64,000 bases of DNA from a virus (Duplodnaviria > Caudoviricetes). The stretch's first letter is position 1. Every line of letters starts with the position of its first letter. The stretch is from the IMG/VR virus record IMGVR_UViG_3300050335_000039, positions 14,811 to 78,810 of that record, one strand, 5' to 3'. The notes beneath the pieces are model-generated. The model was not told where the DNA came from. It did not search any database and saw only the letters and a list, made by a program, of their open reading frames with translations. The translations under genes were made by a program, and so were the position numbers. Below, in pieces: positions 1,834 through 60,763 of the stretch.

Positions 1834-1922
1834 TATTCATCACCATAAAAAAAATTTGGATGGCCTGACTCTCACCAGACTGTATTTTATTGTCCATTTA
1901 GAATCAATAATAGCATCCATAG

Positions 1923-5387: not shown

Positions 5388-5399
5388 ATTATTACCTTT

Positions 5400-5768
5400 C
5401 TATGTAATAGATATTCTACTATTAGCCGATTCGCTTCTCCAAACATCTATTAACATTTTATAAAAATCAAATTTTAATTTACACTTCTCTAATCTTGAAA
5501 CATACTCAGCTAATTCATTTCTTAATGGAATTAATTCATTATTAAATCCAGAATATTTCCACGTAGAATCTATGTATGCAAACGATGGAGCCTTCCCATT
5601 TTGAAAATATTTTGGATCAGTAGTAGCAATTCTAACTATTTCACTTTCCGCAAATTTTATTTTTATATCTAGTTTACTTTTTTCTATAGAAAGATTTCCT
5701 ATTTCATCTATTAACTTAGATAATTCGTCAAAATCCGGTAATTGAATTTTATTAGATATAATACTCAT
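5400..5768 (-). CDS. Hypothetical coiled-coil protein, possibly UvsY-like recombination mediator
   Basis: C-terminal IDVWRSESANSR pattern and position in the recombination module; weak. Confidence 0.4.
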   Translation of the reverse strand: MSIISNKIQLPDFDELSKLIDEIGNLSIEKSKLDIKIKFAESEIVRIATTDPKYFQNGKAPSFAYIDSTWKYSGFNNELIPLRNELAEYVSRLEKCKLKFDFYKMLIDVWRSESANSRISIT

Positions 5769-6147
5769 TTATTATCCTTTCTATATTAGAAACTTTTTCA
5801 CATATTTTATACGATTTTAAAATATCATCTATACATAATTTATCAGTAATTTTTATTATATAGTCCTTATATTTTTCAAAATTAATTGCGGATAAAAATA
5901 CATTATATAAATTAATTTCTGTGTCGTAATTCCAACCAGGAAAATCTAAATAATTAATAAGTATATCGGAAATCTCTTTTTCTGAGAAATCAAATGTTTC
6001 AGATAAATTCTTATTGCTTATTCCGCAGGCACATCCTTTTATAATTTCAAATATTGATATATAATCTAATACATAATTTGGTATTTTAAAATTATCCCAA
6101 TAATATTTTTTAATATCTTCCCAAATATCATAATTTCTTTTTGTCAT
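5752..6147 (-). CDS. Hypothetical protein
   Basis: 131-aa ORF in operon. Confidence 0.55.
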   Translation of the reverse strand: MTKRNYDIWEDIKKYYWDNFKIPNYVLDYISIFEIIKGCACGISNKNLSETFDFSEKEISDILINYLDFPGWNYDTEINLYNVFLSAINFEKYKDYIIKITDKLCIDDILKSYKICEKVSNIERIINEYYI

Positions 6148-6562
6148 ATATTCTATCTAATTCCTCATATAACTCAGACATTTCTGCTATAAGGTTTGAG
6201 AATGTATCAATATCAAGTACTATAAATTCTTGTACTCCACTTCTTGCACCAGAAAACTTACAAATTAACCCTGGAATAGAATATGTGGATTTGGCTTCTT
6301 CCATTATTTTATCTAACCATTCTTTTTTTATGGATAGTTGCGTAGCACCCCCATATCCAACTTTAGCTTCTAATTTAAATTTTTTTGGTATTCCTGATAC
6401 TTCACCTGTAATATCTCCAGTTAAGGAAGAAATATTCAACCTAGTTCCAATTGATCCACTTGTAGGAATTCTCTTCCATATACTATTTTTAATTTTATTA
6501 TTTAATAATTTTACAGCATCTCTTTCAAATTGAGAGCCCTTCCTTTTTGAATTCAAAACCAT
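6128..6562 (-). CDS. Holliday junction resolvase (Hjc-like PD-(D/E)XK)
   Basis: NSKRKGSQFER, GDI, LEAK motifs. Confidence 0.75.
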   Translation of the reverse strand: MVLNSKRKGSQFERDAVKLLNNKIKNSIWKRIPTSGSIGTRLNISSLTGDITGEVSGIPKKFKLEAKVGYGGATQLSIKKEWLDKIMEEAKSTYSIPGLICKFSGARSGVQEFIVLDIDTFSNLIAEMSELYEELDRIYDKKKL

Positions 6563-7855
6563 TTACTTATCTCCAGTCATAATATTATTTGCTAGATTCA
6601 TTTTTAAAAATATTGTTCCAATTGGGCCATTTCTATTTTTCCTGATAATAAACTCCGTTATTCCGGCTTGATTAGTACTTTTTGGATTATAATAATCATC
6701 CCTATACAAAAAACATACAAAATCTGAATCTTCTTCAATATGTCCAGATTGTCTAATATCTGATAAAACAGGGCGTTTATCGTCACGTAATTCACAAGAC
6801 CTATTAATTTGTGATAACATAATTATAGTTATTTTTAAATCATTTGCTAAAAGTTTCATAGCACGAGAAATTCTTCCTAGCTCTGCTACTGAATCAGAAT
6901 TACGCTCAGCTAATAATCCTATATAATCTATATATACTAAATTAATATCATATAACTTTTTATATTTTCTAATAGTTGATATTATATAATTCAAATCAAC
7001 TGAAAAAGTAGTATCAATAAAAATATCTAAATCTTTAAATCTCTTTAAAGAATTTTCTATATCATTTACCTTATTTTGATCTAATAAACCTAGACGTATA
7101 TCTGTAATAGGTATTCCGGTATCCAAAGCAATAAGTCTATCCATTAAACCAGATTCAGTCATTTCAAGATCAAATACTAAAGATTTAGCTCCTGCTTTAC
7201 TGGCATTTAATAATGAATTACACAAAAAAGCTGTTTTACCAGAAGATGGCCTACCAGCTATTATCCATACTTCACCTTCGCAATAACCTCCAGTAGGAAT
7301 ATCTATTGATTTAAATCCAGTAGTTATTCCAGATATTCCTGGATTTTCTAATCTAGTTTTTATATTCTCAAATGTAATATTAACTGTATCAGAAATTCTA
7401 TGCGTGCCTTCTCCACCAGATGTCAATGTTAAATTATCAATTGTACTTCTTAAATTAGAAATAACAGAATCAACATCTTTTTCTTTTATAAAATTGTCTG
7501 ATAATTTTGAAGTTACTGAAATTAATGTTTTAGCTTTGTAAGAATCAACTATATTTTTTTCAAAGTATTTCAGATTATCCTTATTATAATTTTGTGTTAT
7601 CAGGTGCTTTATATATTCCTGACCACCTACAGAATCCAGTTTATTTTTACTCTTTAGGTAATTTATTACTAAATTGATTTCTGGCACTAAACCATCATTT
7701 ACTAGAATATTTATAGTATCAAATAGAATATTATGTGGTGAGGAGGAAAACATAAATGGTTTTACATTTTTTACGTCATAGATTAAATCTGGATTTAAAA
7801 GTATAATAGACAAAAATGCTTTCTCGGATTCTGTTGAAAATAATTCATCAGTCAT
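6563..7855 (-). CDS. dnaB: Replicative DNA helicase DnaB
   Basis: AGRPSSGKT Walker A, IDYI, LSQINR, RPVLSDIRQSGHIEEDSD, KNRNG. Confidence 0.95.
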   Translation of the reverse strand: MTDELFSTESEKAFLSIILLNPDLIYDVKNVKPFMFSSSPHNILFDTINILVNDGLVPEINLVINYLKSKNKLDSVGGQEYIKHLITQNYNKDNLKYFEKNIVDSYKAKTLISVTSKLSDNFIKEKDVDSVISNLRSTIDNLTLTSGGEGTHRISDTVNITFENIKTRLENPGISGITTGFKSIDIPTGGYCEGEVWIIAGRPSSGKTAFLCNSLLNASKAGAKSLVFDLEMTESGLMDRLIALDTGIPITDIRLGLLDQNKVNDIENSLKRFKDLDIFIDTTFSVDLNYIISTIRKYKKLYDINLVYIDYIGLLAERNSDSVAELGRISRAMKLLANDLKITIIMLSQINRSCELRDDKRPVLSDIRQSGHIEEDSDFVCFLYRDDYYNPKSTNQAGITEFIIRKNRNGPIGTIFLKMNLANNIMTGDK

Positions 7856-8225
7856 TTAAGCTCCCTAGTAAAATATTTTTCTGATATTGCTCGTTAATTC
7901 TTTTATTAGTATTATTTATATATGAAGTTAAATCTATATTTGTAGAAAATTCATTGCCATACTTTTTTTCCATTCTTCTCTTGCATAAATAGGTTATCAA
8001 CGGATAAATTTTATCATGGTTTATATTTTCCATATCATACATATCCATTATAGAAAAAAATATAGTTTCCCTGCCATACATTTTTAATAATTTATTAAAT
8101 GTAATTATTATACTTTTATTTATCTGCAAATCAAAAGCCTCACAATAAAACCTGGCTAATAATAGACCAACATTCTTTTCAGTATATAATTTTTGAAAAT
8201 AAAAATCTGCTAAATTTTCTGACAT
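7848..8225 (-). CDS. Hypothetical protein
   Basis: 125-aa ORF coupled to dnaB. Confidence 0.55.
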   Translation of the reverse strand: MSENLADFYFQKLYTEKNVGLLLARFYCEAFDLQINKSIIITFNKLLKMYGRETIFFSIMDMYDMENINHDKIYPLITYLCKRRMEKKYGNEFSTNIDLTSYINNTNKRINEQYQKNILLGSLND

Positions 8226-42633: not shown

Positions 42634-45423
42634 ATGTCAAGTTTTGAAATAAAATTTTTTGAGTATTTGAATACATTAAAAAGTTATTGGAAAACAATGC
42701 CATTAAATCTAGGTGGTACCGGAGGAGATGGGGGAGGTACCGGAGGGCCACCTGGCGGTTTTGTTGGTCAATTACCACAAACAAGGGTTTGTTATGATGT
42801 AACAGAATCTGCTACAAATTTAACAACATCAAGCGGAAGATCATTATTAGATAATTTAAATCATATAAGATATAGATTAAGAGCATTAGAAACTGGTAGT
42901 GGAATATCGGTTAGTGGTGGTGGACATACCATAGCCTATAATGATGTAGTAATGCCACAAAGGACAACATTAAATTTCACTGGAACAGGTGTTACTGTAA
43001 TAGATGATTCTATAAATAATTCTACTGATATTAATATAATTGCAGGAAGCGGAGGAGGTGGCGGTACTCCTGGTGGGTCAGATACACAAGTACAATTCAA
43101 TGACGGAGGATCGTTTGGAGGAGACAGCGGGTTTATTTATAATAAAAATACAGATACAGCTACATTAGCTGGAGAGCTTCATATTTCAGGTTTAACTGGT
43201 AATATATTAAGTTCAACAGCAGTAAAATCTGGTATTATGGAATTAGACCAATCACAGTACTATGAATATAATACTGGGTTTGTAACTTTTAATTATCCAG
43301 GTACATATTATACTATTACTGGAGGAGCTCTAAGACTTGATATACCAGGTTACGGATATATAAAAGGTAAAAAAGTTTCTTGGTCTGCTCCACAAACTAC
43401 ATCTGTTTTTAGTGCTAATACCTGTAATTATGTTTATATAAATTCTAATGGAACTATAGGTAGCACATCCACTTTATCTGATAGCTTATATCAAGATTAT
43501 ATAGTTTTATTTGAAGTATTATACGATGGTACTAATTATATAGCAGTTAAAGAAAATCATCAATACTCATCTAATGCTTTATCTAGAAGAAATTTACATA
43601 GAGAAGTTGGCCCAGTAATAAGAAATGACAATAGGGGAGCTATTGTAGAAAAATTAGGCACAGGATATGGGTCTAATGCTAACGACAGAAGAATAAAAAT
43701 AACTGGTACAGATTATTTAGATGACGAAGATTTAACTACAGTAGTATCTGATAGTGGGGGCTCTGCTGTTACTTTAAATAACTATTATAGAAGTATGACA
43801 GACGGTAAATGGTATTTATATTCACAAGATACAGAATTACCGATGAGATATAGCGGAGCCGGAGGTACGGCAGATGCAATTACTTTAAATAGATTTGCCA
43901 CCTTTAGAATATATGTCGCAAAGGATAATTTAAATTCATCCAGTCCTATTTATTTTTCAGTAATGGGTGAAGGCGATTATGCATCAGATTCTTTAGCTAG
44001 AACAGCCATAATAAATGGAACAGTTAGAGCTACTAACGAATTAGCTGGATTAGAATTAGTACAATTAGCCATAGTTATAGTAAAATATAATACATACGGT
44101 GGATATATATATGAAGTAATAGTGGATAAAGACGTATCAAAAGGAAAACCAACAGGAACAGGAGCCACTACACAGGCTTTATTAGTTTCTACAAATACCA
44201 CATATTTTAATGGAATTCTATCTGGAAGTAATACTAGCGTACAGGATGCTTTAGATACTATAGATAATTATGTACCAAGAGTAAACTACAGCTCTACTTT
44301 TCCATCCTCACCTACAGAAGGAGAATTATTTATACATACTCCAACTGGTAGAGCTATATTATATGTATATAAAGGATCGGCATGGAATGCTATCCAATCT
44401 TTAGGTACTATGACTATGTATGTAGATGGAACTAATGGAACAGATAGTGTTTCTCATGGTACTGCTTCTGGGACTAGTGCATTTGCCACATTACAATATG
44501 CTATAAATATGATACCACCGGTAGTAAACGGAAATGTAGTAATTTATGTACTAAATCAAACGGCAGAAGATGTAGTTATTATGGGAAAAACATTTGGTGG
44601 AAACTATTCTATAGATATTTATGGGGCTTTAACTACTGGAACCGCCGTAACAGATAGTGGTGCTGGGGTACAAGGGGCAGGATCAACCAGAGCTACAGTA
44701 GTAAGAAGTTCAGGAACTTGGACGACAAACCAAATACAACACCAATTGTTAAGGGGGACTAGTGGCGGAAATAATGGAGTATATAGACTGGTAGATAGTA
44801 ATACTACTACAACAGCTACGTTAGTAGGAACGTGGATTGCTGATCCAGCAGCAGGAGAATCGTTTTGCCCTTATTATTGGGGTGGTACAGCATTAAATTC
44901 TATTACTGTAACCAACGGACAAAAAGGAGTAAATATATATGATATAAATATAGGAACTTTAACGTCATCAAATGGATCAGTATGTTCAGCTACTAGATGT
45001 AGTATTGTATATACTCTTTCTACTGTTCAATCACTAATAGATTTAGATACGTGTTTTTGTAACAGGACTACTGGAACAGTAATTATAGCTAGTACAAGTT
45101 CCAGGGTAAAAACGGATAGATGTAAAGTTCTTGGGGTTAGTGGTACTACTATAGGAATGGAATCTGCTTACTCCTCAATTTTACTCGTACGATACGGAAC
45201 AGTTATCGCATCTCATATATACGGAGCAAGGGCTACAACTAATGGAGTTATAGAATGTATTAATACTGCATCTGAAAATTATTTGTTTATTTCATCTTAT
45301 TCATCTTACGGCATCACATCAACTACTGGCGGACAAGTATTAGGTACTTCTAACAACCAGTATGGCGGTGGTGGCTCTGGAACAGAGTTACCTGTAGCGG
45401 CAAGTTATGGATATATTGATTAA
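42634..45423 (+). CDS. Tail fibre protein
   Basis: Gly-rich linkers, PGGSDTQVQFNDGGSFGG motif, MYVDGTNGTD and C-terminal beta-helix-like region. Confidence 0.75.
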   Translation: MSSFEIKFFEYLNTLKSYWKTMPLNLGGTGGDGGGTGGPPGGFVGQLPQTRVCYDVTESATNLTTSSGRSLLDNLNHIRYRLRALETGSGISVSGGGHTIAYNDVVMPQRTTLNFTGTGVTVIDDSINNSTDINIIAGSGGGGGTPGGSDTQVQFNDGGSFGGDSGFIYNKNTDTATLAGELHISGLTGNILSSTAVKSGIMELDQSQYYEYNTGFVTFNYPGTYYTITGGALRLDIPGYGYIKGKKVSWSAPQTTSVFSANTCNYVYINSNGTIGSTSTLSDSLYQDYIVLFEVLYDGTNYIAVKENHQYSSNALSRRNLHREVGPVIRNDNRGAIVEKLGTGYGSNANDRRIKITGTDYLDDEDLTTVVSDSGGSAVTLNNYYRSMTDGKWYLYSQDTELPMRYSGAGGTADAITLNRFATFRIYVAKDNLNSSSPIYFSVMGEGDYASDSLARTAIINGTVRATNELAGLELVQLAIVIVKYNTYGGYIYEVIVDKDVSKGKPTGTGATTQALLVSTNTTYFNGILSGSNTSVQDALDTIDNYVPRVNYSSTFPSSPTEGELFIHTPTGRAILYVYKGSAWNAIQSLGTMTMYVDGTNGTDSVSHGTASGTSAFATLQYAINMIPPVVNGNVVIYVLNQTAEDVVIMGKTFGGNYSIDIYGALTTGTAVTDSGAGVQGAGSTRATVVRSSGTWTTNQIQHQLLRGTSGGNNGVYRLVDSNTTTTATLVGTWIADPAAGESFCPYYWGGTALNSITVTNGQKGVNIYDINIGTLTSSNGSVCSATRCSIVYTLSTVQSLIDLDTCFCNRTTGTVIIASTSSRVKTDRCKVLGVSGTTIGMESAYSSILLVRYGTVIASHIYGARATTNGVIECINTASENYLFISSYSSYGITSTTGGQVLGTSNNQYGGGGSGTELPVAASYGYID

Positions 45424-45905
45424 TGAACATCTGGCCTTTCTTACTTTTTATACCTATTATAATAAATAATTTATATTCTTGTCCTATAAATAACAATAGT
45501 TGGTTATGTAATTCTTTATGGTCTGATAATCCAGCTATTGTAAGAGAACAATTAAATCCATATTGGGTTAGTAGTGAAAATCATACTGTTACTTTATATA
45601 ATCTTACTAGTAACTCAATATGGTTACTTTCTCATAATACTCTGTGGCCTGGAATAGTATGGAAGAATTTAAAAATAGGCGACGAATTAAAATATAGTTC
45701 TAATGAAATAGTTAGAGTATTTTATGTAAAAGAGATATATAATTTTACATTAGAAAATCCAAACGACCCTTTTTCTAATTGGGTAGATGAAAATGGAACT
45801 ACCTATAATACTTTTGAGATTATAAAAAGATTTGATAAACAAAATAATTTAATCTTACAAACTTGTACTAGCAAAGGAAGATTAATTTTAATATCAAAGG
45901 AGTAA
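45423..45905 (+). CDS. Sortase-like protein with signal/anchor peptide
   Basis: SHN (His), LKIGDE, LILQTC (Cys), GRL (Arg) in sortase order. Confidence 0.6.
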   Translation: MNIWPFLLFIPIIINNLYSCPINNNSWLCNSLWSDNPAIVREQLNPYWVSSENHTVTLYNLTSNSIWLLSHNTLWPGIVWKNLKIGDELKYSSNEIVRVFYVKEIYNFTLENPNDPFSNWVDENGTTYNTFEIIKRFDKQNNLILQTCTSKGRLILISKE

Positions 45906-46170: not shown

Positions 46171-46330
46171 ATATAAGAATGGAATTCTTTCTTCTTTCAA
46201 TGAAAAGAAATATAAATCCTGGAAAAAATTATCAATTGACGAAAAATTGGATTTAATTGCCTATATATTAAATATAGTAGATTCTAATGGAAATGTAATA
46301 ATTAACACTAAAACCGATAAAGTAGTATAA
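46136..46330 (+). CDS. Hypothetical protein
   Basis: Short ORF filling the operon gap. Confidence 0.4.
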   Translation: MSMTKLIIASNKYKNGILSSFNEKKYKSWKKLSIDEKLDLIAYILNIVDSNGNVIINTKTDKVV

Positions 46331-46351
46331 TTAAAATAAAAAGGAGTTATT

Positions 46352-46725: not shown

Positions 46726-47613
46726 ATGGAAAAAGCAATAGGGGTAGATGTAAGTTATTATCAGCAAATAATAGATTGGAATCAGGTAGAAGTAGATTTT
46801 GCTATAATTAGATGTTTATACGGTAACTATGAAATTGATCCAAAATTTATTGAACATTTTGACGGAGCTAACAATAAAGTTCCTGTAGTTGGTGTATATG
46901 TTTGGTGGGATGCTACATTAAATCCACAAAAACAAGCAGCAAAAACTTTAGAGATATTAGCAGATAGAAAACCTGATTTTATAGCTATAGATGCAGAACA
47001 GTGGTGGTCTGATTGGAATAAATGGAGAGAATGGAGAAGGGGCGATATTACTAGGGATGAAGTTCCTAGATTTAGTGACGGGCAGTTATCTTCCAGTTTA
47101 AAGATGCTATTTACAAAATTAGCAGAAAGCGGAATTCCAATAATAATTTATACATCCAAAGGATTTATAGATAGTTATATGCCATCTATAACTACATGGC
47201 TAAAAGACAAAATTTTATGGCTAGCCCAGTATCTTACGGTAGTACAGAAATTCGATGTAAAAAAAGCGGCAACATGGAAAGACTTTAAAACAAATGTACT
47301 TCCTCTATTAAGTGAAAATCCAGCTGTTCCTAATGGAATGGATAAAACTTATTGGCATATTTGGCAAATAACCGGAGACCATTTTACTTTACCAGGTATG
47401 TGGTCAACCGTATATAAAAATAGACTTTCTGGTACAGATGTTAATATATTCAATGGTACTCTAGACGATATGAAAAAATTATTCAAAGTAAATAATGTAA
47501 TTACTACTCCCCCAACAGAAGAAGTAAATGTAGTTACATTAGATGAGTGGGCAAAAGAAGTTGATTCTTTTTTAAGAGATAGATTAAATTATGCGGGGTC
47601 AAAGTTAAAATAA
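46726..47613 (+). CDS. GH25 muramidase endolysin
   Basis: GVDVSYYQ..IDW, AIDAE (DxE), IIYT, LWLAQY, WQ, DVNIFNG. Confidence 0.85.
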   Translation: MEKAIGVDVSYYQQIIDWNQVEVDFAIIRCLYGNYEIDPKFIEHFDGANNKVPVVGVYVWWDATLNPQKQAAKTLEILADRKPDFIAIDAEQWWSDWNKWREWRRGDITRDEVPRFSDGQLSSSLKMLFTKLAESGIPIIIYTSKGFIDSYMPSITTWLKDKILWLAQYLTVVQKFDVKKAATWKDFKTNVLPLLSENPAVPNGMDKTYWHIWQITGDHFTLPGMWSTVYKNRLSGTDVNIFNGTLDDMKKLFKVNNVITTPPTEEVNVVTLDEWAKEVDSFLRDRLNYAGSKLK

Positions 47614-47614
47614 A

Positions 47615-48223
47615 ATGTTATTAGAGTTAGTAATAGTTCTATCTATAGCAGTATTTTTATATAAACTAGTATTAAATAAAGATTTAAGTTTAATGGGTTC
47701 TATATTATTAAGAATATATTTACTAGCTATAGTTATCGGTATATTAAATGACACAATAGAATTTGGTTTATTATTAATGTTAACAGCAGACCTTATATCT
47801 AGTTTTGTCTATTTTTTTACTATAGGTTTTCGTGAAAAAACAAAACAAAGGGAGTTATTAGATGCAATTGATTCCTTAAATAGAAAGTACCATGTAATAA
47901 CAAATTCCTCTTTTATGGCAGTATATGTTTTAGATAGGAAAGGGAATTTTATCTCCGTTAATAAAAGAGCTGAAGAAATTACAGGCTACACAAAAGAAGA
48001 ATTAGAAAAAATGAAATGTTATGATATAATAGTTAAATCACAGCAAGATAAAATAAAAGATAGTATATCTTATAGAATAAAAAATGGTATAGTTGATTCC
48101 ATTACTACTGTAGTAGATTTAGTAAGGAAGGATGGTAATATAGTTACCGTTGAATGCGTAAGTGCAGTCACAAAGAACGGGCAAATAACCATAACAGGTA
48201 TAGCTAGACCATTAAAGGAGTAA
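47615..48223 (+). CDS. Membrane protein with C-terminal PAS domain
   Basis: Three TM helices then VYVLDRKGNFISVNKRAEEITGYTKEEL...RKDG. Confidence 0.8.
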   Translation: MLLELVIVLSIAVFLYKLVLNKDLSLMGSILLRIYLLAIVIGILNDTIEFGLLLMLTADLISSFVYFFTIGFREKTKQRELLDAIDSLNRKYHVITNSSFMAVYVLDRKGNFISVNKRAEEITGYTKEELEKMKCYDIIVKSQQDKIKDSISYRIKNGIVDSITTVVDLVRKDGNIVTVECVSAVTKNGQITITGIARPLKE

Positions 48224-48593: not shown

Positions 48594-48821
48594 ATGCCTT
48601 ACGGTATTCCAAAAGATATTGGAGGAGATTCTCCAGAAAACATAGAGTGGATGGAAAATTGTGTAGAAAAAGTTGAACCAAAAATGAAGGGAAGAAAAGA
48701 CCCAAAAGGTTCAGCCATAGCTATTTGTAAAACAGCATTAATGAAATCTAAAGGAAAAAACAAAGAAGCATCTACATTAATAAATTTAGTATTCGATTTA
48801 CCATTTGACGATAAAGAATAA
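48594..48821 (+). CDS. Hypothetical protein
   Basis: 75 aa, AGGAGG SD. Confidence 0.6.
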   Translation: MPYGIPKDIGGDSPENIEWMENCVEKVEPKMKGRKDPKGSAIAICKTALMKSKGKNKEASTLINLVFDLPFDDKE

Positions 48822-48839: not shown

Positions 48840-49332
48840 ATGTGGTGCTTAGATGATAACACAGGTTTATTAATAGATGTGTTAGATTTAGAAGAGGGAG
48901 GAGCATCAATCAGAGTTACAATTACACTAGATAGATATTATACACAAATTGGTAAAATGGCAAACACGAGTGTAATAATGTCATAATCAAAGCGTTGTAA
49001 TGTTATACTCTACTGGAGGTAAACAACTACACATTATAAGTGAAATTTCCGCAGAAGGTACTTGCTATACAGTAACAAAAGAAGGGGTAATAACGGAACA
49101 GAAATAAATATAAAATGTCTAAATAGAGAATATACATACCAAGGAGAAAGTAAAGTATATCACACAAATGAGAACAGCTTTATTACCAGGAGGTACAGGC
49201 CCTAAATCTGGCGGAGGAGTTGCTAGAGAGGGGTTAGAGTGGATTCTAAAACCAAATACGAAATATTCTCTAACAAATATAAGTGGAAACACAATAAATA
49301 TAGGAATAATAAACAGCTTTTATGAAGTATAA
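48840..49332 (+). pseudogene. Frameshifted remnant of a phage gene
   Basis: GGAGG SD plus ATG; protein-like segments in successive frames ending LLPGGTGPKSGGGVAREGLEWILKPNTKY...FYEV-stop. Confidence 0.5.
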
Positions 49333-49364
49333 AAAAGAGAGATAAAAACTCTCTCTTTTTTATT
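49331..49364 (+). terminator. Intrinsic terminator ending the late operon
   Basis: AAAAAAGAGAGA-TAAAAAC-TCTCTCTTTTTT. Confidence 0.7.
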
Positions 49365-49499: not shown

Positions 49500-49565
49500 A
49501 AAATTTAATTATAGAGTCTTTAGGGTACACACCGGCGGCAAATCGGACAAAAAGGGTCAGATTTG

Positions 49566-49664
49566 TGGCAGAAAGGGGGGGGGCTGGAGCAAAAAAAAGT
49601 CGCTCCCCTCACGGGGGGCGTGGATTGAAACTGGCAGAAAGGGGGGGGGCTGGAGCAAAAAAAA
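49566..49664 (+). repeat. 33-bp exact direct repeat flanking the CRISPR repeat
   Basis: TGGCAGAAAGGGGGGGGGCTGGAGCAAAAAAAA at 49566-49598 and 49632-49664. Confidence 0.9.
49599..49631 (+). CRISPR. Solitary type I-C-like CRISPR repeat (no array, no cas genes in window)
   Basis: GTCGCTCCCCTCACGGGGGGCGTGGATTGAAAC: GTCGC start, 8-bp stem CGCTCCCC/GGGGGGCG, TGGATTGAAAC end. Confidence 0.85.
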
Positions 49665-49695
49665 AGACCCTACGCTTACAGCATGGCGTAGGGTC
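49657..49695 (-). terminator. Intrinsic terminator of the minus-strand cassette
   Basis: GACCCTACGC/GCGTAGGGTC 10-bp stem followed by T9 on the minus strand. Confidence 0.85.
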
Positions 49696-49718
49696 ATCAG
49701 TGTATCCTGGCGAGGCGG

Positions 49719-49790
49719 CTACTCCGTTGCCTTGCCAAGGACTAGCAGAACAGCAGATGCAAGCAACAGAATAATTGGTATGACGTCCAT
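49719..49790 (-). CDS. 23-aa hydrophobic peptide
   Basis: MDVIPIILLLASAVLLVLGKATE; ATG overlaps the TAA of the upstream gene. Confidence 0.5.
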   Translation of the reverse strand: MDVIPIILLLASAVLLVLGKATE

Positions 49791-50149
49791 TACTGCTCCA
49801 AAATGCCGTCAACACTGACCACAGGCGATGACTGCGGGTACTGTATCTTGTTAACGATCAAATCACAGTACTCTAGCAGTACGGGCAGAGTCATGGTGCG
49901 TAATAAAACTTGCCCGTCGTACACGTTAGCTACATAGTCAATATCCGATGCCTTGCCGTCAGACAAAAGGTCGCAGTACGTCTGTACTATCTTAAAGCTC
50001 TCCAGCACGCTCTGGCCGAATGGATTACTCTGTGTTACTGTCTGGAGCGCAGACTTAAAGTTTGCGTACTCTCCATCCAGTCTAACCTCTGATATTTTTT
50101 TATCGCTACTTACCTTCATTAGTTTTGTAGTTTTAGTTTTTTCTGACAT
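49790..50149 (-). CDS. Hypothetical protein (119 aa), atypically GC-rich codons
   Basis: ORF with GAGG SD, own promoter and terminator. Confidence 0.65.
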   Translation of the reverse strand: MSEKTKTTKLMKVSSDKKISEVRLDGEYANFKSALQTVTQSNPFGQSVLESFKIVQTYCDLLSDGKASDIDYVANVYDGQVLLRTMTLPVLLEYCDLIVNKIQYPQSSPVVSVDGILEQ

Positions 50150-50253
50150 TTTTGATCCTCTTTCTCTCATTTAAGGGATGAGTCCCGTATGGTTTTTTTT
50201 AATCTATGTGTTTCCGGTAAATAATATTTCATTTTAATTTACCTCACTTTTTT

Positions 50254-50282
50254 AAAATAGCATACTCCATTGATTTTGTCAA
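50254..50282 (-). promoter_or_regulatory. Leftward promoter flanking the repeat array
   Basis: TTGACA-17 bp-TATTTT with TG extension. Confidence 0.7.
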
Positions 50283-50331
50283 TAGTTTTTTCGTTTTAAT
50301 TTAATTTTTTTCTTTTTTTTCGGATTCCGTG

Positions 50332-51229
50332 AGCCTGGATGGATAGCCTGGATAGCCCGGATGGATAGCCTGGATAGCCTGGATGGATAGCCTGGATGGA
50401 TAGCCTGGATAGCCCGGATGGATAGCCTGGATGGATGGCCTGGATGGATAGCCTGGATAGCCCGGATGGATAGCCTGGATAGCCCGGATGGATGGCCTGG
50501 ATAGCCTGGATGGATAGCCTGGATAGCCCGGATGGATAGCCTGGATGGATAGCCTGGATGGATAGCCTGGATAGCCCGGATGGATAGCCCGGATGGATAG
50601 CCCGGATAGCCCGGATGGATAGCCTGGATGGATGGCCTGGATGGATAGCCTGGATGGATAGCCTGGATAGCCCGGATGGATAGCCTGGATGGATAGCCTG
50701 GATAGCCCGGATGGATAGCCCGGATGGATAGCCCGGATGGATAGCCTGGATAGCCTGGATGGATAGCCTGGATGGATAGCCTGGATAGCCCGGATGGATA
50801 GCCCGGATGGATAGCCTGGATAGCCCGGATGGATGGCCTGGATGGCCTGGATGGATAGCCTGGATAGCCCGGATGGATAGCCTGGATAGCCCGGATGGAT
50901 AGCCTGGATGGATAGCCTGGATAGCCCGGATGGATGGCCTGGATAGCCTGGATAGCCCGGATGGATAGCCTGGATGGATAGCCTGGATAGCCCGGATGGA
51001 TGGCCTGGATAGCCTGGATGGATAGCCTGGATAGCCCGGATGGATAGCCTGGATAGCCCGGATGGATAGCCTGGATGGATAGCCTGGATAGCCCGGATGG
51101 ATGGCCTGGATGGATAGCCTGGATAGCCCGGATGGATAGCCTGGATAGCCCGGATGGATAGCCCGGATGGATAGCCTGGATGGATAGCCTGGATAGCCTG
51201 GATGGATAGCCTGGATGGATAGCCTGGAT
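50332..51229. repeat. Irregular tandem array of about 78 RGCCYGGAT(GGAT) units
   Basis: Entire stretch parses into GGAT, AGCCT, AGCCC and GGCCT blocks; count by hand. Confidence 0.95.
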
Positions 51230-51271
51230 ATATATTAAATGAAGAAACTGTGAACATACATAGTACCATAA

Positions 51272-51300
51272 TTGACATAGGATAGACTATGTGATATACT
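51272..51300 (+). promoter_or_regulatory. Rightward promoter flanking the repeat array
   Basis: TTGACA-17 bp-TATACT with TG extension. Confidence 0.8.
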
Positions 51301-53696: not shown

Positions 53697-54479
53697 ATGT
53701 GTGAACTAATTTTTGTAGATACAAAAGATAATTTAGTAAATATATTAACAACTTATGCGTTATTATTAACAGATGGCGCTAAAAATCCAGATGGTTTTGG
53801 AATTTTTACAGAGAAAAGTGGTCTGTTTAAAACAGAAATTCAGCCAAATAATATTGATTCACTTTCAACTTTAATTAAATATAAATGTAACTCTGATATT
53901 ATTTTGGCTCATGTAAGATATGCATCTGACAAAAAAACTGTAAATAATGAAAAAGCCCATCCATTTGAAACAGAAAAATTAATTTTTTCACATAATGGGG
54001 GATTAGAATTTAATAATCCAGATAAATATAAAAATCGTAATTTAATTGACTCTGAAGTATTTTTATCGGAACTTAATGAAAATTATGGCAGGTATCTTCC
54101 AGAGGCTTTAATAGATACAATGAAAAATTTTACTGGTAAATTTGCATTTTTAATTTATTCTAAAGTGGAAAATATGTATTATATTGTTAGAGGATTAACT
54201 GCTAAATTATACATGTCTAGAATTTCTGTAAACGGGATTGATATAGGTTTTGTTGTAAATACTGACGATGTGGACTTAGAGAAATCACTATCTGTTGTTA
54301 AAGATTTTATTTTTCTTATTAATGGAGATAGGTTAGAATATACAAATCCCCTTTTATTGCACAGTGAGAAGATTTATTATGTTAATAATAAACAATTAAT
54401 AGAGTCTGGACATAAAGTAAAAGAAAATAAGAAACATTTTAGTCCTATTAATTGGTTCAAGTTAAATGTTAAAAAATAA
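53697..54479 (+). CDS. Class II (Ntn) glutamine amidotransferase, copy 1
   Basis: Met-Cys start, NPDGFG, LAHVRYAS, HPF, HNG, DSE. Confidence 0.85.
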   Translation: MCELIFVDTKDNLVNILTTYALLLTDGAKNPDGFGIFTEKSGLFKTEIQPNNIDSLSTLIKYKCNSDIILAHVRYASDKKTVNNEKAHPFETEKLIFSHNGGLEFNNPDKYKNRNLIDSEVFLSELNENYGRYLPEALIDTMKNFTGKFAFLIYSKVENMYYIVRGLTAKLYMSRISVNGIDIGFVVNTDDVDLEKSLSVVKDFIFLINGDRLEYTNPLLLHSEKIYYVNNKQLIESGHKVKENKKHFSPINWFKLNVKK

Positions 54480-54741
54480 CATAGGACGTTTATTTTTATA
54501 AAAAAAGTTCATGTTTAAAAAGGAAAATGAAAATGAATATTTTTAGAGCAGTTGTAATTTGTTATATTTCAAGGATTTTAGAAAATGTTTTAGATTATAT
54601 TACTATTGTCTATTTAACTTTTATTCCAATATACCTCTTATTTTTCTTTAAGGGAAAATAAAATGCTAATTGAAATTTTTCAATTTATAATTTCTTTAGT
54701 ATTAATTCTATCGGTTATATTCTTTTTAGGATTAAGAAGGG

Positions 54742-54957
54742 ATGGATAAAATGTTAACCTGGCTGGAGATTTTGGATTATATACTGGAGGAAAGGAATTC
54801 CTTGAAGGAGGCAAAAGAATTTATTAAGACTCTTCCACAGGAAATCCAGGAATCCAATTTAGGACAACTGATTTTAAATGGAAATGAAAATTTTGAAGAA
54901 CAAGTTAAATCCATGTATTTCATGGAGAGATTAGAATCTATGGAGATGGAGGAATAA
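54742..54957 (+). CDS. Small acidic hypothetical protein
   Basis: 71 aa, Glu-rich. Confidence 0.5.
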   Translation: MDKMLTWLEILDYILEERNSLKEAKEFIKTLPQEIQESNLGQLILNGNENFEEQVKSMYFMERLESMEMEE

Positions 54958-55338
54958 AATGAATAATAATAAAGAATTTGAATTAGAACTGGAAAAATTT
55001 AAAACAGATATAAAAATTTTTAAAGATAATATTTATTTACTTTAGTATTTGATTGTTGCTCGGATGAAATGATAAATCTTATTTATCTATATATACGGAG
55101 AAGATTTTTATAAAAACATGTTTAGCTAAATCAATTGATGGTTTAAATTATTTATTAGATAAAGGAAAAAAAGCAAAATGATACTAAATCTTTTTATTAA
55201 ATTAGTTATATGTGCCGTTGCTTTTTATTTTACAACTTTAGTTCTTTTTGTAATTGTAGAGAGAACAGCAAAGGAAGAACCTTCGGAAGAAGATAATTCC
55301 ATCTATAATTTTCATAAAAATAATTAAGGAATTTTAAA

Positions 55339-55722
55339 ATGGTTACTACAAATTATTCATCAAATAAACCCAAAACTTTTTTATTGTTAGTATTTGTAGT
55401 AAGTATTTTATTATTGTTATTTGCATTACCAAAGATAGATTTATCCTTTTCTCATGGGGCATCAAAGCACGGACTTTCTGTAAATGAAAAAATTATTAGA
55501 TGCACAGAAAATAATCCTAATCAACTTTTTTATAAATTAAATAATGGAAATATTGCCATGCCATGCTTTGATGACGAATTAGGATGGACTGTAAGAATTG
55601 TTTTTAAAGATAAAAACGGAATTCATGAAATTACAACTTATCCAAAAGAGGGGATTAAAACTTGGGGGGAAATGGAAAAATATTTATTAAAATACGGTAC
55701 TAGAATTAATAAACCTTGGTAA
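55339..55722 (+). CDS. Membrane-anchored protein with HxxxKH motif
   Basis: N-terminal TM, SHGASKHG, two Cys, ITTYP. Confidence 0.55.
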   Translation: MVTTNYSSNKPKTFLLLVFVVSILLLLFALPKIDLSFSHGASKHGLSVNEKIIRCTENNPNQLFYKLNNGNIAMPCFDDELGWTVRIVFKDKNGIHEITTYPKEGIKTWGEMEKYLLKYGTRINKPW

Positions 55723-56006
55723 TAAAGGAGAAAAAAATGGAATTTGATGGAAATACTTATTTTTTAATTGCAACAGCATTTTTTCCTATCCTTTTTATTT
55801 TTGGGTTTGTAGAATATAAAATGTACAAAGCAAGTTGTTTTCTTGACTTTATACTAAAAACATTTGTATTAATACTTTTTGCTACGGCTTTTTCCATAGT
55901 TTGGCCTTTAATTGCTTTTGTAGTTGTTTTATCTATAATTATGTTTCCTATCTGGTTAATTATTAAATTAATTGAAAAATTAAAAAGCATTTATAGGATA
56001 AATTAA
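55716..56006 (+). CDS. Membrane protein
   Basis: Multiple hydrophobic helices. Confidence 0.55.
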   Translation: MVIKEKKMEFDGNTYFLIATAFFPILFIFGFVEYKMYKASCFLDFILKTFVLILFATAFSIVWPLIAFVVVLSIIMFPIWLIIKLIEKLKSIYRIN

Positions 56007-56007
56007 A

Positions 56008-56535
56008 ATGAATCTGTTTGTCTATTATTCTATAATAATTCTTGTAATTATTATTGCAATAATAATTCAAGGATCGAATCTAAATATTAAACTACATTTA
56101 AAATTAAAGGGCAAGAATGTTATGTATAAAATTTTTAAAATAGCGGAACAAAATGGTATTTCTATAGATAGACACGAAGAAATTAAAATAGAAAAGAATT
56201 TTATAAGTGCAAAGGAGATTAAAAATACTTTTTATACATTTACTTTAGATAATTATTCCGGCTGTTGTCCGATTATAAAATTTACAACTGATGAGCTTAA
56301 GGAATTTGTTATAGAATTGGAAAGACTATATGAGATTTTGATTTCTTCCTGTGTAAATGATGAATTCACTTTTTATGATTTAATTACTACAAATAAAAAA
56401 GAAAATGTAAATTTAAAGGTAAAAATAGATAGTTCCTGTAGAAAAATTAAATTTGAAGTACTTGATTGGTTTGATTATCTTTATCCAGATAATATATTAG
56501 ATTTTATTGTCAACCTAGAAAGGGAATTAAAATGA
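56008..56535 (+). CDS. Hypothetical protein
   Basis: ORF in operon; true start uncertain. Confidence 0.5.
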   Translation: MNLFVYYSIIILVIIIAIIIQGSNLNIKLHLKLKGKNVMYKIFKIAEQNGISIDRHEEIKIEKNFISAKEIKNTFYTFTLDNYSGCCPIIKFTTDELKEFVIELERLYEILISSCVNDEFTFYDLITTNKKENVNLKVKIDSSCRKIKFEVLDWFDYLYPDNILDFIVNLERELK

Positions 56536-56924
56536 AAAAAATAGTAAAAAAAATTCTTTTCCAAGTTGACGGTTTAAATTTTACACAGGTAGAGGAAAAT
56601 GATAGAATTTATTATACTTTTTTTGATACTTTAATATTTAATAATAAGAAAGAAATAATGCATGTAATTGAACTATCGCACGAGTGTTATAAAGACTTTG
56701 TTTCTAATTTAAATAGAGATGTCATCCATTATAACAACGACTATAAAATTTCTATAAAAAATTGCAAAAACTATGATAATACTATAGTTAAATTATTAAT
56801 CAAAGATGTAAAAGAGAACGTTTATGTATCAAGTAAATTAGAACAATACATGGAATTTTTTAATAAAATTATTAATTACTTTAATGGAGAAAAAAATAAT
56901 AATGGAAAAAAAGATAATAGGTAA
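56532..56924 (+). CDS. Hypothetical protein
   Basis: ATGA overlap with previous gene. Confidence 0.55.
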   Translation: MKKIVKKILFQVDGLNFTQVEENDRIYYTFFDTLIFNNKKEIMHVIELSHECYKDFVSNLNRDVIHYNNDYKISIKNCKNYDNTIVKLLIKDVKENVYVSSKLEQYMEFFNKIINYFNGEKNNNGKKDNR

Positions 56925-57237
56925 TATTAAAATTTTAAAATTTGATACAAAGTGCATATATATATTTCTAGATAAAAATATGTATATAACGCTTGATTTT
57001 AAAAAAAATAAAGAAATTATTGTTTACGATAAAGGTAAAACTGTAAATATACATAAAAATAGTATTGATGTATTAAATGATATTGACGACAAGATTTTAA
57101 GTAAGGAGTTTGTATATAACGGGATAATTAATATTACTGGAAATAACTCAAAAATTACTTTTGATTTAAAAAATGGTACTGTATTTAGTTTTTCCGTTAG
57201 TATATTGAAAGACTTTCTAAATTATTTAAAATATTAA
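56884..57237 (+). CDS. Hypothetical protein
   Basis: 117-aa ORF, GGAG SD. Confidence 0.55.
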   Translation: MEKKIIMEKKIIGNIKILKFDTKCIYIFLDKNMYITLDFKKNKEIIVYDKGKTVNIHKNSIDVLNDIDDKILSKEFVYNGIINITGNNSKITFDLKNGTVFSFSVSILKDFLNYLKY

Positions 57238-57254
57238 CAAAGGAGAAAAATAAA

Positions 57255-57608
57255 ATGTTTTTACACAAAAAATGTAAGTCGAATGTATTTCTAGATTTAA
57301 CCGACAATTTGAAAATTACGGCTAATTTTTCAGTAACTGATGAAGGGATTTCTATATCAGTTGCTGATATAGAATCCGTAGAAAATCCAGAAATTATTTT
57401 TATGTGTAAAGAATGTGATTCGGAAGTGAGTTTAGATGAAATTGAAGTAAATTGTGACGAATGTTGGAATAAATTTAATATTGAAGATTTGTTTGTTCTC
57501 AGAAATTCTTCTGGAATTTTTTGTAAAGACTGCCTTGATAAATTAAATATTCCAGAAAAAAATAGAAAATTACTTAAAGAATCAATGAGTTCATTCTATA
57601 ATATTTAA
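57255..57608 (+). CDS. Zinc-finger hypothetical protein
   Basis: HKKC, CKEC, CDEC, CKDC motifs; AGGAG SD. Confidence 0.6.
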   Translation: MFLHKKCKSNVFLDLTDNLKITANFSVTDEGISISVADIESVENPEIIFMCKECDSEVSLDEIEVNCDECWNKFNIEDLFVLRNSSGIFCKDCLDKLNIPEKNRKLLKESMSSFYNI

Positions 57609-57628
57609 AATAAAAGGAGAAAAATAAA

Positions 57629-58492
57629 ATGTTAACATTAGGTAGTGATCCAGAAAGTTTTTTAATGGAAAAGGATGGAAGTACGCTTGTCCCGCCAATT
57701 TATTTACAAAACAATTGTGGTTTGTCGTCTATTGGTGGAACAAAAAAACATCCAATATTTTTACAAACAAAAAATGTAAATATTATCGCTGATGGGGCGG
57801 CATTTGAATTTAATCCACGTCCTTCTACAACTCCAGAAGAATTTTATTCACGTATTGGTGAAATGAAAGATGGATTAAATGAATTAGGAAATAAATTTAA
57901 TTTAATTCCAGCATTTCTACCGACCGTTAATTTCAATGTAGAAAGATTCTTTTTAAATGATAAATTAACTAAAGAAGAAAAAATGGCAGTAATTTTTGGA
58001 TGTGATCCAGATCGTCGTGCTTTTAATAGTTACTATGTATCAGAAATTTTAGATGTTTATGAACATAAATTTAGATATGGCGGGGGGCATATTCATATAT
58101 CTTATCCAGAAAAAAATGAATTAATTAAAGATGAACCTGTACCAATTGTTTTATCTTTAATGTTATATTTAGGCACATATTGTGTTATTAATTCTCCATT
58201 TTTAAAGGAAGATAGGCAAAGATGTTTTTATTATGGAATTCCTGACCGTTATCGTATTCAAAAATATTCTGATGAAATTAATGGAATTGAATTCAGACCT
58301 CCATCAAACAGCTGGATGAGTTGGAGTAAAGAAAAATTTAATGATCTATTTTTTGTGATTGAAAAGGCAATTGAATCCGTAGAAAATAAAAAAATAGGTA
58401 AATTAATTAAGAAATATGGCGACCATGCTTATAATTCTATCTCTAATTATGATGTAGAATCTTGTAAAGATATTTTAAATAATATAATTTAG
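57629..58492 (+). CDS. phiEco32-like COOH-NH2 ligase type 2
   Basis: LGSDPE.FL, DGAAFEFN, GCDPD, RYGGGHIHI, IEFRPPSN. Confidence 0.8.
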   Translation: MLTLGSDPESFLMEKDGSTLVPPIYLQNNCGLSSIGGTKKHPIFLQTKNVNIIADGAAFEFNPRPSTTPEEFYSRIGEMKDGLNELGNKFNLIPAFLPTVNFNVERFFLNDKLTKEEKMAVIFGCDPDRRAFNSYYVSEILDVYEHKFRYGGGHIHISYPEKNELIKDEPVPIVLSLMLYLGTYCVINSPFLKEDRQRCFYYGIPDRYRIQKYSDEINGIEFRPPSNSWMSWSKEKFNDLFFVIEKAIESVENKKIGKLIKKYGDHAYNSISNYDVESCKDILNNII

Positions 58493-58499
58493 AGGTAAT

Positions 58500-59582
58500 A
58501 TGAAAGAATTAATAAATACTATAGGCGTAGAATTTGAAACGGAAAATATTCTACAGTCTAGGATTAGAGACAATTCTAGACTATTTCAATTAAAAACGGA
58601 TGCATCAATAGAATCTGATGCAAATACTATTACCGGAAATAATTTAATATACAAATTAAATGGAAATACTGCTATTTTAAATTGTCTAAGAAACAATGTA
58701 GTAGTTGGTACTGAAATAGTTACTAATCCGCTAGATTCTACAGACAATTTATTTGATAAAATAAGAGAAATTTTATATATGATTTCTTTAGCGGGGGAAA
58801 CACCGTATGGCGAAAGAAGCGGTTATCACTATCACATTAATATTGGTATAAATTTGCAAATTTTAAAAAATATTATAAGACTTGGAAAACATTTAGAGGA
58901 TGTATTTTATTTAATTGGGTGCAACGGATATGAATTTAGAGGAATGAAAAATGATTTTACTTACTGTAGGCCAATAACTTATTTTGGCCCACAATGTGTT
59001 TCCGTAAAAGGCTGCTATTATAGCCAATTATATAATATAAAAGATTTATTATCGGCGGAAACTTCATATAGTTTTTGGGAAATGTACGGCCAAAATCAGA
59101 ATGGGTATTCAACTAGATACCATCCAGTAAGGTACACATGGTTAAATTTATATTCTATTTTAGCTCATTCTACACTAGAATTTAGATTATTTAATAAAAC
59201 ATTAAACCCGTATTATGTTTTAGCTGAAATAGAATTATGTAAAAAATTTGTTTCATTTGTTATTGAAACGTCTTTTAAGGATTTTAAAAATGAAGATTTA
59301 TTAAGAACAAATTCAATATTTGATTGTAGAAGTAAAGAAGATATTATTAAAACATTTATAAGATTTGCTGAAATATCTGAGTTAGATAAAGAATATGTAG
59401 AAATTCTACTTGACATAATGGAGTCTTCACCGTTACCTGTATGTGAAAATTATTATATTTTTTCTCATAAAAGAACCGATAGCTTTTGGTGCAGATCGGA
59501 TTATTATCCAAAAAAAATTCCGGTAGAATCTATAAAAGTACCAAAATATGTTGACATTCATGTATTAAGAGGTGAAAACTAA
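58500..59582 (+). CDS. Putative amidoligase
   Basis: IGVEFE, KTDASI, TEIVT, GYHYHIN, RY..LN, TLEFRLFNKT. Confidence 0.8.
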   Translation: MKELINTIGVEFETENILQSRIRDNSRLFQLKTDASIESDANTITGNNLIYKLNGNTAILNCLRNNVVVGTEIVTNPLDSTDNLFDKIREILYMISLAGETPYGERSGYHYHINIGINLQILKNIIRLGKHLEDVFYLIGCNGYEFRGMKNDFTYCRPITYFGPQCVSVKGCYYSQLYNIKDLLSAETSYSFWEMYGQNQNGYSTRYHPVRYTWLNLYSILAHSTLEFRLFNKTLNPYYVLAEIELCKKFVSFVIETSFKDFKNEDLLRTNSIFDCRSKEDIIKTFIRFAEISELDKEYVEILLDIMESSPLPVCENYYIFSHKRTDSFWCRSDYYPKKIPVESIKVPKYVDIHVLRGEN

Positions 59583-60763
59583 TGTGTGAACTAATGCTAA
59601 TAAATACAAACAATAGAAGAATAAATAAAACTATCTTGTACTTTTTATCCAAAGTAGATAGTATAAAGAATCAAGATGGATTTGGATTTTTTACGAAAAA
59701 TGGAGGAATATTCAAAACAAAACAAGCACCAAATAAAATATCAAATCTTTCAGATATAATTGATAAAAACTATTCGTCTGGAATAATTTTGGCGCATGTA
59801 AGAGCGGCAAGTGCTACAAATGGTAGTAAGATTATTTCCGATGATAAAGCACATCCATTTAGTACAAAAAAATTAATATTAGCTCATAACGGGGCTTTAA
59901 ATTTTACTGGTAATGGTGACGAATATAAAGACAGGGGACTAATAGATTCTGAAGAATTTTTATTAGAGTTAGATAAAGAGTATGATGGCAAAAATTTTCC
60001 TAGTGCTATTAATAAAACTATGGAAAGATTTAAAGGTAAATTTGCATTTTTAATCTACTCCATTCCAGAAAATAAATTCTATGTCATAAGAGGTAAAACA
60101 GCAAAACTGTATAAATCAACAATTAAAATTAATGGGGAAGTTTGTGGAATAGTAATAAATACATCTGATTCTGATTTAAATGAAGCATTAATGTACGTAA
60201 AAGATGTTATGTATATTACATCTAAAATTAATATTGAATTTTCTTCACCGGAATTTATTCCAAATGAGACAATTAATGTTTTGGAAGGATTTAATATTGT
60301 CGAAGTAGCAAAAATAAAAGAAGATGAACCTGTAAGCACGTATAATTATTTTCTATATAACGATTATCCATGCTCAAAAAGTTATGGATATATTAATAAT
60401 AATACTAGTACAAATAAAAAAGATGTAAGAGTTAATAGATTTACAGAATTATTGTATAGTTTTATACTTGTATCGGCATCAGATTTTACAGATGCTGATA
60501 TGGTATGTAAATGTATTACAGGTAAATACCTACTGGATTTAAATTCAAAAGATATTTTGCTATCTCATATAAATACGGCTAATAAATTAATTAATCTAGC
60601 AAAGGGAAATGCTAAACTAGTTAGATCATGGAAAACTATATGTTCTTTTAGTAAAACACCATACACTGACTATAAAATACAATTTCCTTATGTGCTAGAA
60701 AAACCAGATAAAATTTATAGTATTGCAGAAAAACTTATGCCAAGCCAAAATAAGGAAAAATAA
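59582..60763 (+). CDS. Class II (Ntn) glutamine amidotransferase, copy 2, with C-terminal extension
   Basis: Met-Cys start, NQDGFG, LAHVRAAS, HPF, HNG, DSE. Confidence 0.85.
   Translation: MCELMLINTNNRRINKTILYFLSKVDSIKNQDGFGFFTKNGGIFKTKQAPNKISNLSDIIDKNYSSGIILAHVRAASATNGSKIISDDKAHPFSTKKLILAHNGALNFTGNGDEYKDRGLIDSEEFLLELDKEYDGKNFPSAINKTMERFKGKFAFLIYSIPENKFYVIRGKTAKLYKSTIKINGEVCGIVINTSDSDLNEALMYVKDVMYITSKINIEFSSPEFIPNETINVLEGFNIVEVAKIKEDEPVSTYNYFLYNDYPCSKSYGYINNNTSTNKKDVRVNRFTELLYSFILVSASDFTDADMVCKCITGKYLLDLNSKDILLSHINTANKLINLAKGNAKLVRSWKTICSFSKTPYTDYKIQFPYVLEKPDKIYSIAEKLMPSQNKEK

Follow-up and report, generated by a model that had tools for sequence, protein, structure and literature searches.

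A phage membrane protein with a PAS domain, encoded beside an endolysin, as a candidate lysis-timing component

Introduction

In the holin–endolysin paradigm, an endolysin that resides in the cytoplasm needs a membrane-permeabilizing partner, and the moment at which lysis occurs sets the burst size and the fitness of the phage. Known timing controls are holin concentration, membrane potential, dual-start antiholins and the lysis inhibition of T4 and ICP1, which senses superinfection from outside the cell. We know of no studied phage that times bursting by means of a PAS membrane protein, and full-text searches of the literature returned no publication that describes a PAS domain in a holin, an antiholin or a lysis cassette.

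Three described lysis systems are among the closest points of comparison for the locus reported here. In cluster F1 mycobacteriophages, LysF1a and LysF1b (gp34/gp35 in Girr and gp32/gp33 in NormanBulbieJr) form a holin-like pair, and both are genetically required for efficient lysis (PMC13056207). LysF1b-like genes are present in about 80% of M. smegmatis phages and encode N-out/C-in proteins of 92–150 aa that are basic after the transmembrane domain (TMD) and have a helical tail in which 30–50% of the residues are charged (PMC13056207). Phages with lysF1b alone lyse, and can be triggered by an energy poison, while the multi-TMD LysF1a tunes timing (PMC13056207). In the lambda holin S105, which has three TMDs and an N-out/C-in topology, the cytoplasmic C-terminal region controls timing (PMC6116005). 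In T4, holin T is controlled through the antiholins RI and RIII, by way of a globular signal-receiving domain (PMC11413866).

Here we describe a phage gene that lies directly after a GH25 endolysin gene and whose product combines three predicted transmembrane helices with a single PAS domain (hereafter 3TM-PAS). We regard it as a real gene with this architecture and as a plausible candidate for a lysis-timing component. Judged from sequence and modelled structure, 3TM-PAS probably helps to decide when the host cell bursts.

The phage and its genome

The window analysed in this work is the whole 64,000-nt stretch at positions 14811–78810 of a 78,810-bp IMG/VR contig (IMGVR_UViG_3300050335_000039). 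The contig has an estimated completeness of 87% (CheckV) and a GC content of about 28%, and its genes include those for terminase, portal, head and tail proteins. Known phages are distant relatives only; the terminase, for example, has one distant match, which comes from a mangrove-soil phage, and a search for close phage relatives of the endolysin and of the 7-kb region found none. The sequencing runs listed as containing the lysis region comprise one DNA run, from an anaerobic digester metagenome that may be the sample from which this uncultured phage was assembled, and no RNA runs. Logan contigs give no usable coverage of the lysis genes.

Several other features of the window are recorded for completeness. 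A GC-rich island (49520–51300; 43% versus 28% GC) separates the terminator of the late operon from the right arm and carries a type I-C CRISPR repeat, a 126-aa gene on the minus strand and a short-unit repeat array of ~900 bp. Separate Logan contigs over 49569–50357 have depths of 170–310, against about 10–13 for the other Logan pieces that were aligned, and the island may have been inserted or may mark a chimeric join. The repeat is solitary (49599–49631) and identical to those in arrays of Chloroflexota metagenome-assembled genomes (Caldilineaceae, Litorilinea and Anaerolineales). A Chloroflexota host was considered on this basis and rejected, because the only matching arrays are high-GC and the phage has 28% GC. 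In the right arm, genes for glutamine-amidotransferase-like proteins, COOH-NH2 ligases and amidoligases are clustered (53697–60763; PHROGs 4736, 3815 and 2443). The sole tRNA call in the window is a tRNA-Tyr with the unusual anticodon ATA (1922–1995, minus strand; ARAGORN). A 160-aa ORF with a hydrophobic N-terminus lies 3′ of the tail fibre gene (45423–45905), where Pfam gives no match and the best PHROG match is at 0.071.

The PAS gene lies between an endolysin gene and a one-TMD gene

The genes and signals of the lysis region are as follows.

46302–46331, plus strand: promoter-like site (TTAACA, 18 nt, TATAAT; 11/12, a consensus match only) ahead of a 120-aa ORF and the endolysin gene
46726–47613, plus strand: GH25 muramidase endolysin, 295 aa (Pfam PF01183, 2.4e-14; PHROG 291 endolysin, 6.6e-17)
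47615–48223, plus strand: 3TM-PAS protein (P0001), ATG to TAA, 202 aa
48225–48581, plus strand: partner gene, 118 aa, one TMD (phrog_2658 'hol-like', 1.5e-6)
48594–48821, plus strand: p75, a 75-aa conserved small phage protein, also found near the homolog of 3TM-PAS
49336–49363, plus strand: terminator-like hairpin and T run ending the late operon

Single bases separate the endolysin stop codon from the PAS start codon (TAA-A-ATG) and the PAS stop codon from the start of the partner gene (TAA-T-ATG), a tight packing without overlap. The initial annotation had placed the PAS gene between a GH25 endolysin and a gene for a membrane-anchored coiled-coil protein, and this order is confirmed, with a one-base gap on either side. 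The GC3 of the PAS gene (0.17) matches that of its neighbours, which indicates that it is a resident phage gene. Together with the existence of a full-length homolog of 35% identity (below), this match identifies it as a genuine gene rather than a chance ORF.

The endolysin lacks a hydrophobic N-terminal segment of the signal or SAR type (maximum 17-residue hydropathy 1.24), and a recognized wall-binding domain was not found in it. Because it has neither signal nor SAR segment, it requires a membrane lesion or a partner to reach the wall. The only membrane proteins encoded adjacent to it are 3TM-PAS and the 118-aa partner. Elsewhere in the 78.8-kb record, the small TM ORFs (2092–2406 and 123–275, both on the minus strand, and 55716–56006) lie at a distance and match no holin family. 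The ORF at 2092–2406 encodes 104 aa with three predicted TMDs, lies in the nucleotide-metabolism arm by the genes for a dNMP kinase and a dCMP deaminase, and is a distant alternative holin candidate with no family match.

The partner protein has its TMD at about residues 6–23, followed immediately by RKIK and by a 95-residue, coiled-coil-like helical tail that is 46% charged (DEKRH). It is predicted to be N-out/C-in, which would put its helical tail, like the PAS domain, in the cytoplasm.

Among the five neighbouring genes, the PAS gene is the sole one without an AGGAG-type ribosome-binding site, which fits a dependence on translational coupling. The missing site also suggests low protein levels, as would be expected of a regulator more readily than of a bulk hole-former. 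The partner gene has a strong AAGGAG site, located within the 3′ end of the PAS gene. A promoter-like site inside the PAS gene (48003–48030; TAGAAA, 16 nt, TG-TATAAT) lies about 200 nt before the partner gene and is a consensus match only.

The distribution of ribosome-binding sites, with none for the PAS gene and a strong one for the partner in both this phage and a second one described below, would suit a rival reading in which 3TM-PAS is purely an antiholin or timing regulator and the 118-aa protein is the actual holin, held or released by small amounts of 3TM-PAS depending on the PAS state, as T4 RI and RIII act on holin T. This reading also gains from the predicted location of the cytoplasmic PAS domain and the helical tail of the partner on one side of the membrane, and from the F1 mycobacteriophages, in which LysF1b alone is lysis-competent and LysF1a modulates timing (PMC13056207). 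Against it, the conserved buried charges in a domain of three TMDs, described in the next section, suggest that 3TM-PAS has an active role in the membrane. The observations otherwise fit this reading as they fit the model proposed below, and we consider a pure antiholin the next most likely reading, though a rather unlikely one.

The pair is followed by p75 and by the window counterpart of a 155-aa protein that is encoded near the homolog (p155; PHROG 5335, unknown function). Relatives of both are found in the head modules of unrelated phages and are uninformative about lysis, and p75 is probably not a lysis gene. The p155 counterpart (48982–49332) is broken. Its frame shifts at about 49085–49095 and returns at about 49160–49170, with stop codons in each frame, and it is either a pseudogene or the product of assembly errors.

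Three predicted membrane helices, the last continuous with a linker helix

The 3TM-PAS protein divides into three parts.

47618–47830, plus strand: membrane domain, with TM1 at residues 2–20, TM2 at 25–44 and TM3 at 48–72 (hydropathy, AlphaFold2 helices, charges)
47831–47905, plus strand: linker helix, residues 73–97, continuous with TM3 (single AlphaFold2 helix at 48–97)
47906–48211, plus strand: PAS core, residues about 98–199, five strands plus helices (Pfam, AlphaFold2, Foldseek)

Kyte–Doolittle analysis places hydrophobic segments at about residues 2–20, 25–44 and 48–72. An AlphaFold2 model of the protein, built from a 13-row alignment and with a mean pLDDT of 87, has helices at residues 2–20 and 25–44 and an uninterrupted helix at 48–97. 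The N-terminus and loop 2 carry acidic residues as their only charges, and loop 1 and the segment following TM3 are net basic, a membrane charge pattern that is also kept in the homolog (P0095). From this distribution the positive-inside rule predicts an N-out/C-in protein with a cytoplasmic PAS domain, a topology based on hydropathy and charge rules.

The alignment of 3TM-PAS with its homolog, at 33–35% overall identity, preserves two buried charges, R33 (TM2) and D59 (TM3). The retention of both residues at such divergence suggests that the membrane domain is more than an anchor or tether. In the linker, the hydrophobic residues L81, I85, L88, Y92 and I95 follow a 4-3-4-3 spacing, as read from the sequence, which suggests that the protein would form a parallel dimer. 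A continuous helix that runs from a transmembrane segment into a PAS domain with such spacing is the geometry for signal transmission and dimerization in membrane sensors.

With three predicted TMDs and a predicted N-out/C-in topology, 3TM-PAS resembles class I holins such as lambda S105 and P2 Y. Its gene lies beside that of a cytoplasmic endolysin in the window, as holin genes do, but such a neighbour is not seen on the 3.5-kb contig of the homolog. At 202 aa, 3TM-PAS is twice as long as these holins, a PAS domain stands in place of the short charged tail, its gene lies 3′ rather than 5′ of the endolysin gene, and it has no dual-start motif. Such a motif was considered and rejected, because Met27 is not conserved and the Met1/Met6 pair of the homolog adds negative rather than positive charge. 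No Pfam or PHROG holin family was matched, even when the N-terminal part alone was searched at E values up to 10.

The C-terminal domain is a PAS fold without an output domain

Residues 92–197 match three Pfam PAS families: PAS_9 (PF13426; 5e-10, 40 bits against a gathering cut-off of 27), PAS_3 (5.1e-10, 39.9 bits against 25.6) and PAS (3.6e-07, 30.6 bits against 22.6). In a profile search of the phage's own genome, PF13426 scored 41.1 bits. The model has a pLDDT of 90–98 over the PAS domain (residues 90–200), which forms an antiparallel, five-stranded core with flanking helices, and Foldseek comparison with the PDB returns solved PAS domains (3bwl, 2r78, 3olo, FixL and NifL) with E values of 2e-9 to 1e-8 and target TM scores of 0.80–0.89. 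Thus, both the AlphaFold2 model and the matches to solved structures identify the C-terminal domain as PAS. The protein ends about 3–5 residues past the last PAS strand and therefore has no output domain. The initial description of the protein, as three transmembrane helices plus one PAS domain lacking an output domain, accordingly agrees with hydropathy, Pfam, AlphaFold2 and Foldseek.

In profile searches of the 78.8-kb phage record, this was the sole PAS domain, and HATPase_c, Response_reg (receiver) and GGDEF domains were not found, which leaves the membrane domain and the partner protein as the only plausible outputs that are visible. 3TM-PAS shares with FixL-type membrane PAS kinases and cyclases the PAS fold and a continuous helix that runs from the last TMD to the PAS N-cap. 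Unlike these sensors, it has no kinase, GGDEF, HAMP or other output, either in the protein or elsewhere in the phage record. With no output domain, the PAS domain would have to signal to the membrane domain or to the partner.

LOV domains carry an NCRFLQ flavin motif with a reactive Cys, and the heme-binding domains of FixL and DOS carry a proximal His on the F-alpha helix. When the sequence is read against these motifs, no His is present in the F-alpha helix of 3TM-PAS (141–157). Cys135 occupies the LOV position but is flanked as K-C-Y-D-I-I, and it is Val in the homolog. The domain may bind another ligand or may act only as a dimerizer.

A full-length homolog is followed by a similar one-TMD protein

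A word-index search with the whole 3TM-PAS protein returned the query alone. A phmmer search over 1.84 billion representatives gave 30,328 PAS matches, of which the best 150 are mostly multi-PAS proteins, and P0095 (216 aa, 35% identity over residues 7–197) is the only full-length relative among these best 150 of 30,328. No further 3TM-PAS protein was found by a similar-length profile search, by a search with the TM part, by viral-contig scans or by a metagenome scan in which 66 PAS loci were inspected. Likewise, tblastn against 50,697 phage records found none at 1e-3 and noise only at an E value of 10. The family thus has two members among the matches listed, which makes synteny statistics impossible.

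P0095 is encoded on a 3.5-kb Logan contig (L002; run ERR14964769), for which exact-sequence look-ups gave no longer contig. Aligned with 3TM-PAS, the protein is conserved across both the membrane part and the PAS domain. The homolog is followed by a one-TMD protein of 129 aa with a tail that is 42% charged, whose gene overlaps the PAS gene by 7 nt. The two partner proteins are weakly similar (E value 0.003), and the charges flanking the TMD predict an N-out/C-in topology for both. In each phage, the PAS gene abuts the preceding stop codon and has no Shine–Dalgarno sequence, the strong site of the partner gene lies within the end of the PAS gene, and the other neighbours of the PAS gene have AGGAG.

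The gene upstream of the homolog encodes an S/T/N-rich, beta-rich protein. This protein has no Pfam or PHROG match, returns only unnamed viral clusters from the ESM Atlas and has a pLDDT of 34 when modelled from its single sequence with AlphaFold. No recognizable endolysin is present on the 3.5-kb contig, either upstream of the pair or after it. The linkage of homologs to lysis genes, by which the initial annotation could be judged, is therefore partial: the one-TMD partner is linked to the PAS gene in the one homolog found, but a recognizable endolysin is not.

The position of the homolog away from any recognizable endolysin on its contig bears on a rival reading in which 3TM-PAS has a role other than lysis, as a membrane-tethered PAS domain that acts on the host, for example as a decoy that heterodimerizes with a host membrane kinase by way of the kinase's PAS domain, in superinfection exclusion or in defence. 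Its place at the end of the late operon would then be incidental. A decoy for a host sensor kinase had also been suggested in the initial annotation. PAS domains commonly heterodimerize, and stand-alone PAS proteins of about 200 aa, whether membrane-bound or soluble, are widespread in bacteria, which counts against a lysis function. The p75 and p155 genes that follow the pair are probably not lysis genes, which makes the region a mixed one. Nevertheless, the PAS gene lies one base from the endolysin gene in the same operon, its charged one-TMD partner is conserved, and there is otherwise no holin candidate near the endolysin. Late expression, moreover, would suit neither host takeover nor exclusion well. 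On balance, we judge a non-lysis role unlikely.

The conserved partner could also be read as an i-spanin of a phage with a diderm host, in which case 3TM-PAS would lie between endolysin and spanins, as LysA does in P2, and the true holin would be encoded elsewhere. Both partners combine an N-terminal TMD with a coiled coil, the endolysin is a single-domain enzyme, and the partner on L002 weakly matches PHROG 89, 'Rz-like spanin' (4e-4). This match, like the 'hol-like' match of the partner in the window, probably reflects coiled-coil composition. In addition, the charges in both partners predict N-out/C-in, the opposite of the N-in/C-out arrangement of i-spanins, and no o-spanin lipoprotein ORF was found embedded, overlapping or downstream in either locus. 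A spanin identity is accordingly very improbable.

In layout and description, with no sequence similarity expected and a mycobacterium as the host there, the locus is most readily compared with LysF1a/LysF1b, as in both cases the lysin gene or genes are followed by a multi-TMD gene and an abutting one-TMD gene. The partner resembles LysF1b in having one N-terminal TMD, a length of 118 aa, the RKIK segment and 46% charged residues in its tail, and the partner on L002 does so with 129 aa and 42%. The multi-TMD proteins differ. LysF1a has 77–88 aa, two TMDs, an N-in/C-in topology and short charged ends, whereas 3TM-PAS has three TMDs, a predicted N-out/C-in topology and a 110-residue PAS domain.

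Other phage PAS proteins and fold matches

The PAS relatives found in the viral-contig scan were limited to two loci (L003 and L004), which encode a soluble receiver-PAS protein (PAS_9, 8e-19; Response_reg, 7e-15). On the second of these, an unrelated 72-kb contig (IMGVR_UViG_3300035661_000053; region 3590–7887), the receiver-PAS protein (413 aa; 4611–5852) is encoded among genes for TM and coiled-coil proteins, 1.3 kb ahead of a gene for a holin-like TM protein and of the following enzyme.

7189–7887 of that contig: N-acetylmuramidase (PF11860, 1.7e-39)

A search of BFVD with the 3TM-PAS model gave fold matches to several phage proteins of 170–240 aa that aligned over the whole length. One match, S0A2B2, is a 172-aa entry from the cultured Cellulophaga phage phi18:3 and, going by protein length, is probably gp090 of that phage. 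The phi18:3 cassette (KC821620, 38612–41452; L085, 613–3453) encodes the small TM proteins gp088 and gp089, gp090, the multi-TM protein gp091, the GH108 endolysin gp092 and the spanin-like proteins gp094 and gp095. The gp090 protein (172 aa) has a basic N-terminus and one helix. It gives no PAS signal at the sequence level, and hhalign comparison with the PAS alignment found no similarity.

A proposed model for lysis control by 3TM-PAS and its partner

The observed anatomy, fold, gene order and conservation of the pair, and the lack of classical output partners, lead us to propose that 3TM-PAS may supply the multi-TMD component of a holin-type module for lysis control that consists of two proteins, with the PAS domain as a cytoplasmic gate or dimerizer. 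We hold this reading tentatively, with a probability of roughly 0.45.

If this model is correct, the GH25 endolysin, which has no export signal, would accumulate in the cytoplasm late in infection. 3TM-PAS would probably be made at a low level, through re-initiation after the endolysin stop codon, and would insert with its N-terminus out and its C-terminus in, probably forming parallel dimers by way of the PAS domain and the TM3–linker helix. It would act with the abundant, charged, helical one-TMD protein to control or form the lesion that releases the endolysin. In ordinary class I holins, timing is tuned by a short charged tail in the cytoplasm. The PAS domain would stand in its place and might link the membrane bundle and its state to a condition inside the cell, such as a ligand, redox state or energy state, or simply to dimerization.

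In a more specific version of this model, 3TM-PAS would be a sensor-gated holin whose PAS domain reads a ligand, redox or energy signal and, through the rigid TM3–linker helix, times permeabilization together with the one-TMD partner. We consider this version quite unlikely. The initial annotation had likewise proposed a holin or antiholin gated by a cytoplasmic signal. The lysis-control part of that proposal is favoured by the signal-less endolysin, by the class I-like predicted topology and by the LysF1a/LysF1b-like gene order. The gating part stays conjectural, because no cofactor or ligand signature was found.

T4 lysis inhibition is a precedent for the triggering of a holin under the control of a globular domain and a dedicated partner. 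The T4 sensory domain, however, is periplasmic, has another fold and receives a superinfection signal, whereas the PAS domain of 3TM-PAS is predicted to be cytoplasmic, and there is no homology between the two.

The system is small, comprising two genes and one enzyme. If the proposed function is true, the phage would read the interior of the cell, through a metabolite, redox state or energy state, directly at the lysis step, and 3TM-PAS would represent a natural, compact membrane switch that is controlled by a ligand or by the state of the cell.
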